Shown here: piece after piece, positions 4,511-15,754 of the stretch
Numbering within the stretch: position 1 is the stretch's first letter
How the letters are laid out: the number at the start of each line of letters is the position of its first letter
NCBI RefSeq assembly: GCF_900289195.1
Contig: NZ_OMOH01000009.1
Location: 30,001-62,000 of the forward strand
Direction: 5' to 3'
Source: Propionibacterium ruminifibrarum
Lineage (GTDB): Bacteria; Actinomycetota; Actinomycetes; Propionibacteriales; Propionibacteriaceae
Length of the DNA stretch: 32,000 nucleotides
The notes under the pieces: model-generated
Seen by the model: the letters and a program-made list of their open reading frames with translations, nothing else
What the model was told of the DNA's origin: nothing
The model's database searches: none
Made by a program: the position numbers and the translations under genes

Positions 4511-5631
4511 CCGTGTACATCGTCGACGCCCGGCGCACCGCGATCGGCTCGGCCCGCGGCATGTGGCGCAGCGTGGACACCACCGGCCTGGCCGCCCCGG
4601 TGCTCGCCGAGCTGGCGCGGACCTGCCCCGCGCCGGAGCTGATCCGGCAGATCGTCATGGGCACCGTACGGGGCCCCGGCGGCAACATCGCCCGGGTCGC
4701 CGCCCTCGCCGCCGGGCTGGACGGGGTGCCCGCGCTGAGCGTCGACCGCCAGTGCGGCTCGGGGCTGGCCGCCGTCGAGGTGGGCCATCACTGGCTGGCG
4801 GCCGAGCCCGGATACGTCATCGCCGGGGGCGTCCAGTCCGTCTCGACCGAGCCGCTGACCTACTGGCCGCCGACCGCCGGGGAGCCGGCCCGGCGCTACG
4901 AGCGGGCTCCCTTCGCCCCGCCGGGATGGGCGGACCCCGAGATGGGTGAGGCGGCCGATGCGCTGGCCGCCGAGCGCGGTGTGGGGCGGGAGCGTCAGGA
5001 CGCCTACGCGGCGGGCTCCCACCGGCGGGCCGTCGCCGCGCAGGAGGCCGGGCTGTTCACCGCCGAGATCGTTCCCGTCCACGGCAGGAGCCGCGACGAG
5101 CGGCCCCGGTCCGGTTTCACCCCTGAACGGCTGGCCCGTTTCCGGCCCGCCTTCCGCGCCGGCGGCACGGTCACCGCGGCGAACTCGTGCGGCATCAACG
5201 ACGGCGCGGCCGCCGTGCTCATGGCCGACGAGGACACCTGGCGCCGTCACCGGGGCCCGGGGCTGCGCGTCCTGGCGCTCTGCTCGGCCACCTGCGACCC
5301 GGCCCGCCCGGGCTGGGGAATCGTCCCGGCCTGCCGGCTGGCCCTTGAGCGCGGCGGCGTCAGCGCAGACCAGCTCGACGTCGTCGAGTTCAACGAGGCG
5401 TTCGCCGGGCAGGTGCTCGCCTGCCTGGACGCCCTGGGCATCGACCAGGGGCGCAACTGCCGGCAGGGCGGCGCCATCGCGCTGGGGCACCCGTGGGCCG
5501 CGTCCGGGGCGATCCTGTTGACCCGGCTGTTCAGCCAGCTGGTCCGCCAGGGCCGGGGACGATACGGCCTGGCGGCCATCGCCATCGGGGGCGGCCAGGG
5601 CACGGCCGCGGTCGTCGAGGCGGTGCGCTGA
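4507..5631 (+). CDS. Thiolase-fold protein (acetyl-CoA acetyltransferase family) lacking the second catalytic Cys
   Basis: Motifs: VDRQCGSGL (nucleophile Cys), FNEAFAGQV (Asn), GGAIALGHPWAASG (His). The usual C-IGGGxG is A-IGGGQG (GLAAIAIGGGQGTA). The GTG start overlaps the ligase stop (GTGA at 4507-4510). Confidence 0.85.
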   Translation: MTVYIVDARRTAIGSARGMWRSVDTTGLAAPVLAELARTCPAPELIRQIVMGTVRGPGGNIARVAALAAGLDGVPALSVDRQCGSGLAAVEVGHHWLAAEPGYVIAGGVQSVSTEPLTYWPPTAGEPARRYERAPFAPPGWADPEMGEAADALAAERGVGRERQDAYAAGSHRRAVAAQEAGLFTAEIVPVHGRSRDERPRSGFTPERLARFRPAFRAGGTVTAANSCGINDGAAAVLMADEDTWRRHRGPGLRVLALCSATCDPARPGWGIVPACRLALERGGVSADQLDVVEFNEAFAGQVLACLDALGIDQGRNCRQGGAIALGHPWAASGAILLTRLFSQLVRQGRGRYGLAAIAIGGGQGTAAVVEAVR

Positions 5632-5682
5632 GCAGACGCCCGGCAGCGCCCCGACGATCGGCTCGTGGTGACGCGGGCCCTG

Positions 5683-5715
5683 CCGGGTGCCCCCGACAGA
5701 TCGGATGGCACCCGG
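5683..5715 (+). terminator. GC-rich hairpin downstream of the thiolase gene (possible intrinsic terminator)
   Basis: CCGGGTGCC-(15 nt)-GGCACCCGG, a perfect 9-bp stem 52 nt after the stop. There is no clear U-tract (followed by TATGAACC). Confidence 0.35.
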
Positions 5716-5808
5716 TATGAACCATCGGCGGGTTCGCGCCCCCTGACGTCAGCGTGGGTGGACGAGTCACCGCGCTCTCGGCCCGGCGCCGCCTGGACCG
5801 GTAGGCGT

Positions 5809-5847
5809 GAGGCCCGGACCCCTCCCATCGCTCAGGGGCCGGGCCTC
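5809..5847. terminator. GC-rich hairpin between convergent genes (likely terminator of the lacZ-symporter operon)
   Basis: GAGGCCCGGACCCCT-(10 nt)-AGGGGCCGGGCCTC, arms complementary apart from one bulged base. It lies 14 nt beyond the symporter stop (5861). There is no U-tract. Confidence 0.45.
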
Positions 5848-5860
5848 ACTGCGCCCCGGG

Positions 5861-7249
5861 TCAGGCCGGGGCGCCCTCGGGTGCGGCCGAGGCCGCCCGG
5901 AGCTCCTTGTTGGCCTTCTCGACGTCGAGCCGCCACAGCAGGAACAGGATGATCGCATTGGCGGCGGCCGGGATCCACAGGTACATGACGTAGAGCATGG
6001 TGATCACCGACTGCGCCTGTTCCGCGGCGTTGGCGATGTAGCCGCTGGCCGACAGCAGCCACCCTGCCAGCGCCGTGCCGAGGCCGCCGCCGATCTTCAC
6101 GCCGAGTGAGGTGCACGAGAACATGAGGCCGTCGATGCGCTTGCCGGAGCGCAGGAAGGTGTTCTCGGAGGCCTCGGCGATGAGGGCGTTGAGGGTGCCC
6201 TGCAGCGGGCTCATGCCGAGCGAGGCGACGCCCGAGAAGAACATCATGAGCGGGACGTTGCCGAGGTAGGCGGCGCCCGCCACGCCAAGCCGCCCGAGCA
6301 CGGCGATGATGTAGCCGATGATGTTCACCTTGTACATGCCGCCGAACTTGGCGACGACCGCGGGCGCGAAGAGCAGCCCGACGATGAGCGGAATGTTGAT
6401 GGCCCAGGCGAAGGGGCCCAGCAGGTTGGCATTGCCCAGGATGTACGTCATGAAGTAGATGCCCATGTTGAGGGTCGCGGTGAACATCTGGGTCATGATG
6501 AAGACGACGAGGATGACCAGGTAGTACTTGTTGTGCGCCAGGAGCTTGAAGGACTCGGCGACCGAGACCTTCTCGGCCTCCCGGGCGGCCTCGGCGTCGT
6601 CGATCTCGGTGAGTTCCTCGGGCGAGAGCTCCTTGACCGACAGCACGGAGATCGTGTTCACCGCCAGGCCGACGAGGGCGTAGATGATGGCGATGGTCCG
6701 CCAGCCCTCCGCGCCGCCGCCGAGCATCTTGACGCCCTCGACGGTGATCGTCTGGATCGTCAGGCTGGTGCCGAAGGCGAACATGAACCTGATGGACCCC
6801 ATCTGGACGCGCTCGGCGCTGTTCTTGGTGATGAGCGCGGTCAGCGAGGAGTAGGCGATGTTGTTCGCGGTGTAGAAGACGGCGTTGAGCAGCGTGTAGG
6901 CGATGAAGAACCAGGCGTACTTGGCGGTCTCGCCCAGGCCCACCGGGATCGCGAAGATGGCGATGATCATCGCGGCGCAGCCGAAGAAGGCCCACAGCAT
7001 CCACGGGCGGGCCTTGCCCATCCTGGTCTGGGTCTTGTCGAGGAGGGTGCCGAAGACGAAGTCGGAGAAGCCGTCGAACAGTTTCGAGACCATCATCAGG
7101 GTGCCGACGATGCCCGCGTTGAGACCGACGGTGTCGGTCAGGAAGATCATGACGAACGCCGACAGCAGGGCGTACACGACGTTCCCGGCGACGTCGCCGG
7201 ATCCGTAGCCGACCTTGTTGTACCACCTCAGGTACTTCTTCTCTGGCAT
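5861..7249 (-). CDS. Glycoside-pentoside-hexuronide (GPH):cation symporter (MelB/LacS-like sugar transporter)
   Basis: 462-aa, 12-TM-type ORF. The N-terminus YGSGDVAGNVVYALLSAFVMIFLTDTVGLNAGIVGTLMMVSKLFDGFSDFVFGTLLDKTQTRMGKARPW matches the GPH signature (D..G.l.D.t..r.GK.RPW). It lies 40 bp downstream of lacZ on the same strand, with GGAGAAAGG before the ATG. Confidence 0.9.
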   Translation of the reverse strand: MPEKKYLRWYNKVGYGSGDVAGNVVYALLSAFVMIFLTDTVGLNAGIVGTLMMVSKLFDGFSDFVFGTLLDKTQTRMGKARPWMLWAFFGCAAMIIAIFAIPVGLGETAKYAWFFIAYTLLNAVFYTANNIAYSSLTALITKNSAERVQMGSIRFMFAFGTSLTIQTITVEGVKMLGGGAEGWRTIAIIYALVGLAVNTISVLSVKELSPEELTEIDDAEAAREAEKVSVAESFKLLAHNKYYLVILVVFIMTQMFTATLNMGIYFMTYILGNANLLGPFAWAINIPLIVGLLFAPAVVAKFGGMYKVNIIGYIIAVLGRLGVAGAAYLGNVPLMMFFSGVASLGMSPLQGTLNALIAEASENTFLRSGKRIDGLMFSCTSLGVKIGGGLGTALAGWLLSASGYIANAAEQAQSVITMLYVMYLWIPAAANAIILFLLWRLDVEKANKELRAASAAPEGAPA

Positions 7250-11684: not shown

Positions 11685-12122
11685 TCAGATGTCGGTGTCG
11701 ACCCTCGTGGCGCCCAGGGTGTGAAGGGTGGCCTCCAGAACCCCGACCGGGCAGGGCCGTTCGGACAGGACGATGCTCACCCAGCCGCGGTCCTCGTCCA
11801 GGACGTCGGCGTCCCACCAGCGCCAGGGGCGCTCGTCGGGGTCGGCCCAGGAAAGCCAGGCGTCGACGTCCCAGATCCGGTCGGAACCGGCCGGGCGGCG
11901 CCGGCAGGCCCTGCGGAACCAGCCGGGCAGGGTTGCCCGCGCCCGCCCGTCGGTGAAGGCCTCGTGGTCGAGGCCGACCACCGTCAGCCAGACCTGCCGG
12001 GAGCCGTCGATGACGTCCTTGGCCAGGCCCGGCACGACGAAGTCGATGCGGCCGAGACCGAGCCCGCCGGGCCGCTCTCCGGCGTCGGGTCCGGATCTGA
12101 GCCGTGACACCTCAGTTGACAT
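11685..12122 (-). CDS. Hypothetical protein, 145 aa, Trp/Asp-rich, no recognised domain
   Basis: The ATG at 12122 is preceded by a strong SD (GCAGGAGGtctgccATG). Codon third positions are very GC-rich by hand inspection. Sequence: MSTEVSRLRSGPDAGERPGGLGLGRIDFVVPGL...WDVDAWLSWADPDERPWRWWDADVLDEDRGWVSIVL... The ORF-track start at 12281 has no such signals. Confidence 0.55.
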   Translation of the reverse strand: MSTEVSRLRSGPDAGERPGGLGLGRIDFVVPGLAKDVIDGSRQVWLTVVGLDHEAFTDGRARATLPGWFRRACRRRPAGSDRIWDVDAWLSWADPDERPWRWWDADVLDEDRGWVSIVLSERPCPVGVLEATLHTLGATRVDTDI

Positions 12123-12232
12123 GGCAGACCTCCTGCGAAATGGGATTGCGGTAGGCCCATCATCGCGTACCGGCCAGCATCCCAGCGCTCCGGGGAGACC
12201 GTACGGGGAGACGAGCCGGCCCCGCGCAGCTG

Positions 12233-12244
12233 TCGTAACGATCA
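12233..12244 (+). repeat. Direct repeat copy 1 (TCGTAACGATCA) left of the ATPase module
   Basis: Exact 12-mer, followed by CCCGGG. The second copy is at 14009-14020. Confidence 0.4.
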
Positions 12245-12478
12245 CCCGGGAGGGCCCATCGGATCCCGCGATGGCTTGCACAGTCCTGCCCCGTCATGGG
12301 CCGGGGAACACGGGGTCATCGTGGTCACACGAAGACGCGGCGCATTGGACAGCAACTGTCTGGCGAGGCATCGCACCGGCCTTCGCGAGCCATGGATGAG
12401 TCGGGCGGCGCGGGGAGCCTCCGCTGTGATGAGCCGCGACTCCAATCGTTGCCACACTGGATCATCTAAGCTTGTCGC

Positions 12479-13666
12479 ATGGTGGTTCGTCTGGGCCGTC
12501 TCGTCGTCGAGGGGCTGGGGTCGATACGTCATCTCGAGCTGGACCTGACCTCGGACGTCACTGTGCTCATCGGCGCCAATGGTTCCGGCAAATCGAACCT
12601 CGTCAGTGCCTTGGAGCTCGTCTCCCGCATTTGGGACGACTCCTTCCAGGAGTACCTGAGGCAACGCGGTGGGGTGGGCAGCCTGCTCTACGCCGGCGAT
12701 GACGGCCGTGCCGAGCAGATCCTCATCGAGCTGCTGTCCGAGGTGGGCACAGCGGATTCGGACAGTGTGGCCATGCGCAATGGCTACCGAGTGACACTCC
12801 GGCCAGACGAGGTGGGCGACACGGAGCGGGTCGAGATCCGTGAGTGGCTGCTCTTCTGCGATATGGAAAATGACAAAGAGCCCTACGCGGAAGACATGGG
12901 TTCTGGGATTCACAGCATTATCCGCGACGTCACCGACCCCGGGCCTGCTGGCAAGTTCCGGAACTTCGCCGGCAACGTCCGCCCCATCGGAGCCGACTGC
13001 CGGGTCTTCCACTTCGATGACGTCTCAGCCAACGCCCCTGTCCAGGGCTGGTCAACGATCGGGGACGACGCGGCCCTCCATTCTGACGCAGAGAATATAG
13101 CCGCCTATCTGTACCGGCTCCGCGAAGAGCACCCGAAGAACTACCAGAGAATTGTATCCGTAGTACGTCATGTCACGCCCTTCTTCGATGACTTCGTCCT
13201 CAAACCCGACTCTGCGGAACGAATTCGCCTGCAGTGGAAGCAACGAGGCTTGGACCGCACCTTCCGGGCATCCGAGGCCAGCGATGGCACCCTGCGCTTC
13301 ATCTGCCTGACCACCTTGCTGCTGAGCCCAGACCTGCCGGCTACTGTCATCCTCGACGAACCCGAACTCGGACTCCACCCAGCAGCTATCGGACTCCTCG
13401 CGGAGCTGACCCGCATCGCGGGAAGAACCGGCCACAAGGTCATTCTGGCCACTCAGTCGGTACCATTGGTCTCTCATTTCGAGCTGGGTGAGATCGCGGT
13501 CCTCGACAGAGTCAATGGCACCACTCAGGCGACCCGCCCCAACGAGGAATTCCTGAAACCCTTCTTGGACGACTATTCCACCGGAAACCTCTGGGAGATG
13601 AATCTTCTCGGTGGACATCCCTCCGCGGGAGAGGCACCTAATGAAGGAGAGCATCGTTTTCGCTGA
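12479..13666 (+). CDS. SMC/ABC-type (OLD/AAA_15-AAA_21-like) ATPase, defence-island type
   Basis: 395 aa. Walker A GANGSGKSN near the N-terminus, ABC-signature-like SDGTLRF, Walker B/D-loop VILDEPELGLHP, H-loop position ILATQS, C-terminal NLWEMNLLGG. It is split by a long insert between Walker A and the signature, as in RecF/OLD-type ATPases. The gene is low in GC relative to the flanks. Confidence 0.85.
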   Translation: MVVRLGRLVVEGLGSIRHLELDLTSDVTVLIGANGSGKSNLVSALELVSRIWDDSFQEYLRQRGGVGSLLYAGDDGRAEQILIELLSEVGTADSDSVAMRNGYRVTLRPDEVGDTERVEIREWLLFCDMENDKEPYAEDMGSGIHSIIRDVTDPGPAGKFRNFAGNVRPIGADCRVFHFDDVSANAPVQGWSTIGDDAALHSDAENIAAYLYRLREEHPKNYQRIVSVVRHVTPFFDDFVLKPDSAERIRLQWKQRGLDRTFRASEASDGTLRFICLTTLLLSPDLPATVILDEPELGLHPAAIGLLAELTRIAGRTGHKVILATQSVPLVSHFELGEIAVLDRVNGTTQATRPNEEFLKPFLDDYSTGNLWEMNLLGGHPSAGEAPNEGEHRFR

Positions 13667-13868
13667 AGGATAAACAGAGGAGACCATCGGCACGAATGCT
13701 CTCGCACCAGCAGCACTGGGGCGCGGTCTCCTCCTCCAGCCATCCGAGGCAAAAACCTCACCAAACCCATCTGGAGCACGTCGCAGAATGTCACCCCAGC
13801 AAGACTCGGAGCTATTCTTGAACGCCCCCTCACTTTCGCTTCGTGGGCATTCCGCCCTAATCGAGTAA
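13641..13868 (+). pseudogene. TOPRIM-like (DUF4276-like, from memory) partner gene interrupted by an in-frame TAA after codon 10
   Basis: The ATG at 13641 overlaps the last 26 nt of the ATPase gene. Hand translation: MKESIVFAEG*TEETIGTNALAPAALGRGLLLQPSEAKTSPNPSGARRRMSPQQDSELFLNAPSLSLRGHSALIE*. A hydrophobic strand followed by EG-x-TEE is the first TOPRIM motif. The stop sits exactly at x, and TAA is one transition from CAA (Gln). The downstream sequence has further stops. Confidence 0.45.
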
Positions 13869-14008
13869 CCACAGGACGCACACGACTTGCCCTATATTAT
13901 GCTCATTTCCGACATGACCAGGCCAGAACAACGGCAGCCGCACCAGCCAAAAAGACAAATCGGACTCGAACCATCGATTCATCATTGACGTTGCTGATGC
14001 GATGAGCC

Positions 14009-14020
14009 TCGTAACGATCA
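14009..14020 (+). repeat. Direct repeat copy 2 (TCGTAACGATCA) right of the ATPase module
   Basis: Exact 12-mer identical to 12233-12244, followed by GCGATCCGGG (copy 1 is followed by CCCGGG). Confidence 0.4.
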
Positions 14021-14228
14021 GCGATCCGGGCTGAGAACTGTCACGGCCCTCATGACATGGGTGAAACAAGGTCGGCGAGCAGTCGAGTCCACCCGCCCCG
14101 AACGGGAGCGTTCTGCACACGAGAGGCGCCGCAACGGATCGTTGCGCCCATTCCTGTGAGGGTTGGCGGCCGATCCGTGGCCCGCTGGCTACTGTTGCCC
14201 CAGACCCGTGGAACAGGAGGCGAGCGGC

Positions 14229-15032
14229 ATGACCCCCGGTGAGAAGATACAGCGACTACGAAAACAGCAGGGGCTCTCCCAGGAGGCCCTGGCCGAGCGG
14301 ATCACAGTCACCAGGCAGACCATCTCGAAATGGGAATTGAACCAGTCATCACCGGACCTGTTCTTCATCGCCCAGCTCAGCGACATCTTCAACGTGTCCT
14401 CCGATTATCTGATCAAGGATGACATGGTCGAACCCGATGAGCTGCCCGTCATGAAGCGGAGCTACAGGCTGTCCGAGCGGAGCAGGCGCATTCTGCTGGT
14501 GAGTTTTTCGGCCGCGGCGTTGACCGCCATGTGCGTATGCCTGATCTGTGATTACTTCACTGCGGACGGGCTGTCCTGGTCCCTGACCGCCGCCGTCTCC
14601 ATCGTCGCGGGGTGGCTCGTGCTGCTCCCGAGCCTGACGGCCAGGTCACGACCGGTCGTGAAGACCCTGCTCATGGCCAGTATCATTCCCATTCCCCTGC
14701 TCGCACTGCTGTCGCTCCTCCTGGCTGAACCCGTCGTCCTCACCCTGGGCGCCTGCGTCTCGCTGGTCTCTATCGCGGCCCTGTGGGCGGTGTACGGGAT
14801 CTTCCGCAGGTTCTGGCCGAACTGGTATCGGGCGGCCGGCTTCTCCCTCCTCGTCATGATCCCCGTTCCGGTGGCAATCACTCACCTGGCGGCCGCGTTC
14901 CTGCAACAGGGCACCCGGGATCTCTCATCAGATGTCTTCAACAGCGCCATCACCCTCGTCCTCGCCCTTTCCTGCTTCGGGCTGGACTTCGTCCGCCACC
15001 GCGGGAAAGACGATGCGGTGGACCCGGCATGA
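14229..15032 (+). CDS. XRE-family HTH regulator fused to a polytopic (about 6 TM) membrane domain
   Basis: The ATG is preceded by ACAGGAGG. The N-terminus is a classic HTH_3: EKIQRLRKQQGLSQEALAERITVTRQTISKWELNQSSPDLFFIAQLSDIFNVSSDYLI. The rest contains six hydrophobic segments (ILLVSFSAAALTAMCVCLICDYF, WSLTAAVSIVAGWLVLLPSL, LLMASIIPIPLLALLSLLLA, LTLGACVSLVSIAALWAVYGIF, FSLLVMIPVPVAITHLAAAF, AITLVLALSCFGLDFV). Confidence 0.8.
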   Translation: MTPGEKIQRLRKQQGLSQEALAERITVTRQTISKWELNQSSPDLFFIAQLSDIFNVSSDYLIKDDMVEPDELPVMKRSYRLSERSRRILLVSFSAAALTAMCVCLICDYFTADGLSWSLTAAVSIVAGWLVLLPSLTARSRPVVKTLLMASIIPIPLLALLSLLLAEPVVLTLGACVSLVSIAALWAVYGIFRRFWPNWYRAAGFSLLVMIPVPVAITHLAAAFLQQGTRDLSSDVFNSAITLVLALSCFGLDFVRHRGKDDAVDPA

Positions 15033-15664
15033 GAACCGTTCTGCTGCACGGACTGGGCCAGACCGCCAAGGACTGGGAGGATGTGGTCTCGCGGATTCCT
15101 GCCGGTGAGGTGGACTGCCCGGAATTGTTCGCCGAGATGACCGGCGAGGTCAGCTATTCCCGGCTGCTGGCCGACTTGGAGCACCGATATGCGGGCACGG
15201 CGGAGCCGCTTCGCCTCTGCGGTCTCTCACTGGGGGCACTGCTCGCCATGGACTACACGATCCGGCATCCGGACGAAGTGGCTTCGCTGGTCCTCATCGC
15301 GACGCAGTACAAGGCGCCCCGCCTACTCATCGATTGCCAGAACCTCCTGTTCCGGTGCATGCCGGGCCGGTCGTTCAGTGGCATGGGGATCTCCAAGAGC
15401 GATGCGATCGCACTGGCCCGGTCCATGCGGTCCCTGGATTTCACGGCACGGTTGGGCGAGATCGTGTGTCCGGTGGTGATCCTGTGTGGCGAACGCGACC
15501 GAGTGAATCTGAGAGCGTCGCGCAGGCTGCAAGAGCTCCTACCGGATGCGACGCTCCATGTCGTGCCCGGGGCGGGCCACGAGCTCAACCGGGCCGCGCC
15601 GGATGCCATCGCTGACGCTCTCGACCCTGGAACGCCCGGGGCGCCGACGGGTCTCCTCGGGTGA
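15029..15664 (+). CDS. Small alpha/beta-fold hydrolase (211 aa), no signal peptide
   Basis: The ATG overlaps the XRE gene stop (ATGA at 15029-15032). Motifs: N-terminal LLHGLGQT, nucleophile elbow GLSLG, acidic CGERDRV, His in PGAGHELN. The ORF-track start at 14783 lies inside the upstream gene. Confidence 0.8.
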   Translation: MRTVLLHGLGQTAKDWEDVVSRIPAGEVDCPELFAEMTGEVSYSRLLADLEHRYAGTAEPLRLCGLSLGALLAMDYTIRHPDEVASLVLIATQYKAPRLLIDCQNLLFRCMPGRSFSGMGISKSDAIALARSMRSLDFTARLGEIVCPVVILCGERDRVNLRASRRLQELLPDATLHVVPGAGHELNRAAPDAIADALDPGTPGAPTGLLG

Positions 15665-15754
15665 GCATGGACCGGCACCAGCAGCCGGCCGGCGCCCTGC
15701 GGCGCGTGGCCACTCGGTGTGCCAGAGTGGAAACTGGCAGAACGGGGAGGGACC

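Follow-up and report, generated by a model that had tools for sequence, protein, structure and literature searches.

The two reading frames at the locus

This work concerns a two-gene locus in a 32,000-nucleotide (nt) stretch of DNA from Propionibacterium ruminifibrarum (contig NZ_OMOH01000009.1, positions 30,001 to 62,000), which we call the window. The first gene, at 12479-13666 on the plus strand, encodes an intact ABC-type (AAA_21) ATPase of 395 amino acids (aa). The second frame begins inside the 3' end of the first and is what is left of a gene for a TOPRIM-like nuclease of the DUF4276 family. An earlier sequence-only reading of this DNA had proposed such a pair, in the style of OLD, PARIS and AbiL, and had taken a stop codon early in the second frame as the event that disabled the presumed nuclease while leaving the ATPase intact. 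We believe that the logic of an ATPase with a TOPRIM partner is right, and so is the idea that the partner was lost while the ATPase stayed intact. The exact family is a different one, HEC-01, and the main lesion is not the stop codon, since about 420 nt of the partner gene are gone and the surviving pieces are out of frame with each other.

The coordinates and motifs given for the ATPase in that reading are correct, and the databases have an entry for the identical protein from P. ruminifibrarum (P0001). The Walker A sequence or P-loop, GANGSGKSN, lies at 12572-12598 (residues 32-40), an ABC signature-like motif, SDGTLRF, at 13280-13300 (residues 268-274) and the Walker B motif with the loop that follows it, ILDEPELGLHP, at 13349-13381 (residues 291-301), all on the plus strand. 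Invariant in our alignment A1 are G32, N34, G35, G37, K38 and S39 of the first, S268, G270, L272, R273 and F274 of the second, and L292, D293, E294, P295, E296, L297, G298, L299, H300 and P301 of the third. The sequence ATQS replaces the H-loop histidine across the whole ATPase family and is no defect in this member of it. There are 96 columns conserved at 95% or more among the other 21 aligned homologues, and the ATPase departs from one of them and keeps 95. The ATPases that have intact partners depart from 0 to 11 of the same columns.

The full-length match of the ATPase is to the PADLOC profile HEC-01A (PDLC04175, E 1.3e-117, 391 bits), with residues 4-381 aligned to profile positions 5-362 of 363. 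Pfam AAA_21 matches as well (E 1.1e-30). The mad3, AbiLi, GajA and Old profiles give much weaker or partial matches by comparison with HEC-01A: mad3 reaches 6e-18 in PADLOC, and the NCBIfam MAD3 model (NF047739) 3.8e-20, with 72.4 bits against an equivalog cut-off of 420. The PADLOC AriA match, at 1e-29, is also partial, its best stretch covering only residues 237-330. A sequence search of the PDB with the ATPase returned only marginal UvrA/SMC P-loop matches, so it has no solved close relative. We place it among the ABC ATPases of the defence-island AAA_15/21 kind and not with the RecF, RecN or SMC proteins.

The end of the ATPase gene has changed. Its C-terminal residues are ...NLWEMNLLGGHPSAGEAPNEGEHRFR, of which the last eight (NEGEHRFR, 13643-13666) form a frameshifted extension with no conservation in the family. 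From the GGA codon of ..LLGG to the ATGA there are 25 nt in the window versus 26 nt in two loci that carry relatives, L010 and L035. This loss of 1 nt makes the ATPase skip its ancestral TGA and run on for eight codons to the TGA at 13664-13666, so that the ancestral ATGA stop/start overlap is lost. The ATPases of close relatives have 382-387 aa and overlap the partner gene by 4 nt; the overlap in the window is 26 nt.

The second frame opens, as the sequence-only reading said, with the ATG at 13641; the ATPase stop codon ends 26 nt further on. From this ATG the frame runs as MKESIVFAEG to the TAA at 13671-13673, continues as TEETIGTNALAPAAL... and closes at the TAA at 13866-13868. That reading had extended the frame to 14228 and had staked its claim on a similarity of the frame to known partner profiles. 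The extension does not hold, because the remnant ends at 13868; the similarity is there. A tblastn comparison of intact partners with the window aligns codons 1-48 (13641-13784, plus strand), the interrupted EG*TEE motif included, at 52% identity (E 8e-12). With the stop read as Gln, the PADLOC HEC-01B sub-model PDLC04188 matches at 5.8e-6. A profile that we built from 20 intact partners has a single significant match in the six frames of the 32-kb window, at positions 1-48 (independent E value, i-E, 6.7e-7). Only these two profiles detect the remnant; Pfam gave no match to the 75-aa conceptual remnant, again with the stop read as Gln. Profile positions 49-190, which hold the catalytic core, had no match in any of the six frames across the 32 kb.

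The 3' piece of the partner gene, roughly its last 25 codons, lies at 13790-13868 in another frame of the plus strand. There VTPARLGAILERPLTFASW (13790-13846) aligns with IAEA(G/R)LGAILERCPTFA(A/S)W, the C-terminus of intact partners, which taken alone is a weak protein match. A collinear nucleotide alignment with the last ~57-77 nt of the partner genes of L035 and L033 runs through the stop. A 7-nt gap relative to that allele restores the original frame, and the TAA at 13866-13868 is probably the counterpart of the ancestral stop.

The lesions of the partner are thus a nonsense codon at position 11, an internal deletion of ~420 nt that leaves 228 nt of an original ~650, and at least two further frame changes. 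The deletion takes the codons of the invariant residues D77, E122 and E124, and of the invariant acidic residues only E9 and E13 are retained. It is this deletion of the core that is the main lesion, not the TAA. The suggestion of the sequence-only reading that the TAA came from a CAA codon is plausible. Homologues have Gln or Pro at the site, encoded by CAG in Actinomyces-type alleles and by CCA (VEGPTE) in the resident Propionibacterium allele. The profile matches and the collinear alignments show the second frame to be a pseudogene of a DUF4276 (HEC-01B, TOPRIM-like) partner.

The same allele occurs in an independent 1412-bp contig (L001) from sequencing run ERR15338075, which encodes an identical ATPase and carries the same TAA. 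The last 30 nt of that contig (1383-1412) are not collinear with the window from 13727 on and occur nowhere else in it; this tail may reflect structural variation or an artefact where the contig ends. We also considered whether it belongs to a less deleted partner. The frame-shifted match on which that idea depends, TSSTGARRYASPWPH with TSATPAGARRGGGSWRH, has an E value of 0.006 in a tiny database, and we find it unconvincing.

The partner family and its losses in other lineages

The relatives discussed here were gathered through exact-protein look-ups and one genome scan. A DUF4276 gene directly follows the ATPase gene in nearly all of them (loci L002-L007, L010, L011, L014-L016, L018 and L033-L036), as the sequence-only reading had proposed. 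Far from never carrying an overlapping partner, homologous ATPases do so in most of these pairs through a 4-nt ATGA or GTGA overlap. The paired loci come from metagenome-assembled genomes (MAGs) of oral Propionibacteriaceae, from Actinomyces species and from an uncultured Propionibacterium, and farther off from Thermoflexus, Priestia and Saprospiraceae. Their partner genes encode 212-220 aa and start with ..(V/I)(L/V)VEG(Q/P)TEE... Intact partners match Pfam DUF4276 (1.9e-29 and 8.1e-34) and the HEC-01B sub-model PDLC04188 (1e-58); NCBIfam has no model for the family. Seven residues are invariant in the alignment of 20 intact partners: E9, G10, E13, G49, D77, E122 and E124.

The TOPRIM-like nature proposed for the partner is borne out by structure prediction on an intact family member, P0127. 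An AlphaFold2 model of it, built on the 20-partner alignment, has a pLDDT score (predicted local distance difference test) of 90.6 and a predicted template modelling (pTM) score of 0.87. When Foldseek compares this model with the PDB, the top four matches are the C-terminal Toprim regions of OLD nucleases: 6NK8 (E 9.3e-4, probability 1.0, TM 0.45-0.47), 6NJV, 6NJW and 6NJX. The model has the features of the Toprim superfamily, namely the Toprim fold, a conserved Glu that follows strand 1 and a cluster of acidic residues that follows strand 3. The literature agrees: DUF4276 has been placed in the Toprim superfamily, with Mad4 named as a homologue (PMC12065111), and HEC-01 has been described as an ABC ATPase with a TOPRIM protein that has the OLD metal site (bioRxiv 10.1101/2024.01.29.577857). 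On this evidence the DUF4276 partners are TOPRIM-like.

The window is not the only place where the partner has been damaged. In Actinomyces gerencseriae (L012) partner residues 52-137 are deleted and the adjoining ATPase is full length. In Actinomyces massiliensis (L013, 4001-6070) the partner is reduced to its last 18 aa (~6017-6070) and the gap is filled by an open reading frame (ORF) for a 227-aa membrane protein on the opposite strand (5192-5875). The ATPase of that locus has a shortened N-terminus and reads DEPGLGLHP versus the otherwise invariant DEPELGLHP, an E-to-G change. In L009 a frameshift at a GGGG run interrupts the partner beside a full-length ATPase; this locus is from a MAG and an assembly error is possible.

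Other partners have lost the core in frame. Such forms in the protein database include P0176 and P0177 (120 aa, without residues ~59-152), P0159 (169 aa), and P0162 and P0164 (164 aa), and all of them retain the N-terminal ~50 and the C-terminal ~60 residues. P0162 adjoins an intact ATPase. One oral Propionibacteriaceae locus has two forms of the partner, a 214-aa DUF4276 protein (L002-L006, 6149-6793) or the 120-aa P0176 (L037-L039, 3001-3363), and both adjoin an intact 383-aa ATPase. P0176 is indexed in 95 collection blocks and occurs in many oral metagenomes. The end points of the deletions differ, so these were independent events. It is important to realize that our sampling began from the ATPase and is biased against finding broken ATPases. 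The recurrence of core deletions would be consistent with a costly, toxin-like effector, such as one with a role in abortive infection.

Three further observations concern these relatives. The 120-aa protein P0192 (ENA) looks like a deletion fusion in which an ATPase C-terminus, ...EDYSTG, is joined to a partner at SWRHYD...; it has ATHS, versus ATQS in the family. The intact pair of the oral Propionibacteriaceae locus is followed, ~3.4 kb downstream, by the BREX genes brxA and brxB (L002/L003/L005, 10164-11152). In L007 an SLFN_AlbA_2 gene lies upstream of the pair and a DUF4143/AAA_14 gene downstream. Some relatives are near defence genes, unlike the locus in the window.

A divergent allele in a conserved chromosomal slot

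The gene order of the window is matched exactly in Propionibacterium australiense (L033/L034) and in two metagenomic contigs (L035/L036). It runs from a GH2 beta-galactosidase, LacI and a 145-aa hypothetical protein on the minus strand, through the ATPase and DUF4276 genes, to an HTH_3/DUF6320 protein and an alpha/beta hydrolase. In L033-L036 the slot holds an intact pair, with an ATPase of 387 aa, a DUF4276 protein of 217-218 aa and a 4-nt overlap. The synteny of L033/L034 reaches Peripla_BP_2 and TetR genes, and that of L033 also an AMP-binding gene.

Up to 12164 the window matches L035 at 97-100% nucleotide identity. From there the identity falls to 60-75% or to unalignable sequence as far as ~14065, and it is at least 97% again from ~14070. 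The divergent stretch (12165-14065, corresponding to L035 4712-~6850) takes in an upstream region, the ATPase gene, the partner remnant and ~200 nt beyond it. Its GC content is 0.608, versus 0.57 for the L035 allele and 0.70 for the flanks. The ATPase of the window is 67% identical to that of L035, and the L035 ATPase is 94% identical to the one from P. australiense (L033). Identity to every relative found lies at 63-69%, and the databases searched hold none above 69%. The 314 nt upstream of the ATPase gene (12165-12478) match none of the fetched loci as nucleotides, and in translation match them only at the level of chance, and the ~200 nt past the remnant are ~74% identical to a Propionibacterium intergenic region.

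We believe these data point to a divergent low-GC allele that has been swapped in at a conserved slot. The ~1.9-kb allele probably came by homologous recombination through the flanks, and the donor belongs to a lineage that has not been sampled. An identity profile that goes from 98% to 69% and back to 98% is a clean example of the replacement of a putative defence-module allele in a fixed slot.

A blastn high-scoring pair that restarts at 13811 (94.5% overall) had first led us to place the right junction inside the partner gene, where the recombination itself would have caused the deletion. Sliding-window identity refutes this. It remains at 58-75% from 13780 to ~14060 before it rises to 97% or more, which puts the 3' remnant and ~200 nt of intergenic sequence within this one divergent allele.

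Two smaller points concern the neighbouring genes. A 198-aa ORF on the minus strand (11685-12281) has no Pfam match and is probably the 145-aa hypothetical protein (11685-12122, minus strand) as found in L033 and L035, with an extension that enters the divergent cassette. The 3' end of the alpha/beta-hydrolase gene (window ~15600-15680) also differs, with 636 nt ending in ..GTPGAPTGLLG versus, in L035, 651 nt ending in ..ADGSPRASTSQ. Together with a break in the blastn alignment at 15667/15672, this suggests a small indel or rearrangement.

Weighing the explanations and the known systems

We are confident, short of certainty, that we have here a degraded HEC-01-type module in which a pseudogene of the effector stands beside an intact ATPase, as a divergent allele in a conserved slot. 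The intact form consists of an ABC-type ATPase gene and, translationally coupled to it, a gene for a DUF4276 TOPRIM-like nuclease of about 215 aa. If it works in the manner of PARIS, OLD and Gabija, the ATPase would sense the invader and keep the nuclease in check. Upon infection the TOPRIM effector would be released or activated, cut nucleic acid and stop the infection. The effector is gone here, so the module cannot carry out nuclease defence through its own partner. The ATPase may persist because selection still acts on it or simply because it has not yet been hit.

Several points weigh against this reading. The division into sensor and effector is an analogy and not a result, and to our knowledge no experiment has shown HEC-01 to act in defence. 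The TM of 0.45-0.47 between the partner model and the OLD Toprim regions is just under the usual 0.5. A promoter and terminator scan of 12100-14300 found no promoter-like site, and two terminator-like hairpins on the minus strand that occur at chance frequency. The partner may already have been broken in the donor, before the allele reached this slot. The one published trial found that HEC-01 gave no protection against phage in Escherichia coli (bioRxiv 10.1101/2024.01.29.577857).

The alternative that survives best is that the ATPase has become a domesticated single gene kept by selection, whether it senses for another effector in trans, acts as a decoy or serves some purpose other than defence. 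We regard it as possible and on the whole doubtful. The argument for it is that the 228-nt remnant has a nonsense codon and shows three or more indel events, versus no disruption in the 1162 nt of sequence that belong to the ATPase only, a contrast that hints at continuing constraint on the ATPase. However, the lesions of the remnant may be one complex event or may be older than the transfer, and the tail of the ATPase has itself lost 1 nt. The comparison of the window with L001 gives one synonymous difference in 1296 nt of upstream and ATPase sequence versus two in the 60 nt past the ATPase stop (Fisher p = 0.006), but the counts are small, and both of the extra differences fall close to where a short-read contig stops, a place prone to errors and to the mixing of strains. 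The ATPase does retain 95 of 96 conserved positions, and in other lineages intact ATPases (383 aa) stand beside core-deleted partners (P0176, P0162, L012). On the other side, the E-to-G change in the DEPELGLHP motif beside the lost partner of A. massiliensis points toward eventual decay of the ATPase, and no gene adjoining ours looks like a second effector.

A stronger proposal, which we think unlikely, is that selection and not random decay has repeatedly removed the TOPRIM core while the ATPase was kept. If it is true, the nuclease would be costly enough to be disarmed repeatedly, or the ATPase, with or without a dead mini-partner, would have a selectable function of its own. Whole alleles would meanwhile be exchanged at the fixed slot under diversifying selection.

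The sequence-only reading had also raised the idea that a sequencing error hides an intact system, to which one may add a misassembly or a TAA that is read through by programme. A lone stop within a well-conserved motif does resemble a base-call error. Sequencing error is excluded because the TAA is found in L001, an independent assembly from another run, and above all because the core is deleted: no frame of the window has the ~420 nt for profile positions 49-190. The 3' piece has shifted to another frame, and readthrough would yield just 75 aa without the catalytic core. A functional two-gene system concealed by any of these means is very improbable.

Weakest of all is the idea that the ATPase is a housekeeping repair protein of the RecF/RecN/SbcC/SMC type and its downstream similarity a coincidence, for although some database records call relatives 'chromosome segregation protein SMC', and SMC_N, recF, recN and the UvrA/SMC chains of the PDB do match weakly at the N-terminal P-loop, the family matches cover only ~40 residues there and score far under the curated cut-offs (NCBIfam recF 23 versus 172 bits, recN 20 versus 408, Pfam SMC_N 31.8 versus 40), against 391 bits for the full-length match to HEC-01A, and the gene varies both in its presence and in its alleles, has a low GC content and has DUF4276 as its partner in relatives.

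What the degraded HEC-01-type module offers is a new, damaged member of a known candidate defence family, a finding that is real and fairly ordinary. An automated tool would make no call at this locus, or would list an unpaired HEC-01A match at most. Its value lies in a natural experiment: nearly identical Propionibacterium backgrounds carry either the intact pair (L035/L036, P. australiense) or, in the strain of the window, an allele with the ATPase only. The intact and broken alleles are material for testing HEC-01 defence in its native host, the test in E. coli having been negative. The repeated deletions of the TOPRIM core would, as argued above, suggest an effector that is costly to its host.

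It remains to place the module among the known systems. OLD (P2 Old, class 1) and Gabija GajA share the combination of an ABC ATPase with a Toprim nuclease, and the best structural matches of an intact partner are to OLD (6NK8, 6NJV/W/X). In those proteins, however, the ATPase and Toprim parts are fused, whereas relatives of our locus have two ORFs with a 4-nt overlap, and the OLD and GajA profiles match the ATPase weakly (1e-11 to 1e-14) and in split fashion. The MAD3-MAD4 part of MADS has the same pair of domains, an AAA_21-type ATPase and a homologue of DUF4276. The ATPase here scores below the MAD3 equivalog cut-off, and the pair stands alone, with no adjacent methyltransferase or other MADS genes.

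PARIS is alike in joining an AAA_15/21 ABC ATPase (AriA) to a separate small TOPRIM effector (AriB), and the DUF4276-associated ATPases (MADS3-4) share the AAA15/21 tree with it (PMC11464382). It differs in that AriB is a DUF4435 nuclease and not a DUF4276 protein, and in that the AriA score of our ATPase is far under its HEC-01A score. The supramolecular complex and the cleavage of tRNA are, on present evidence, features of PARIS and not of this module.

The closest system is PADLOC HEC-01 (Hma-embedded candidate 01). The ATPase matches HEC-01A from end to end, the remnant and the intact orthologues match PDLC04188, and the two genes are co-directional and overlapping. The locus departs from the HEC-01 definition in having a pseudogene where an adjacent intact HEC-01B gene is called for, and its neighbours are lac-type sugar genes on one side and an HTH/hydrolase pair on the other, not an Hma or defence island. 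Taken together, the profile matches and gene arrangement assign the module to PADLOC HEC-01, and not to PARIS, OLD or AbiL proper.

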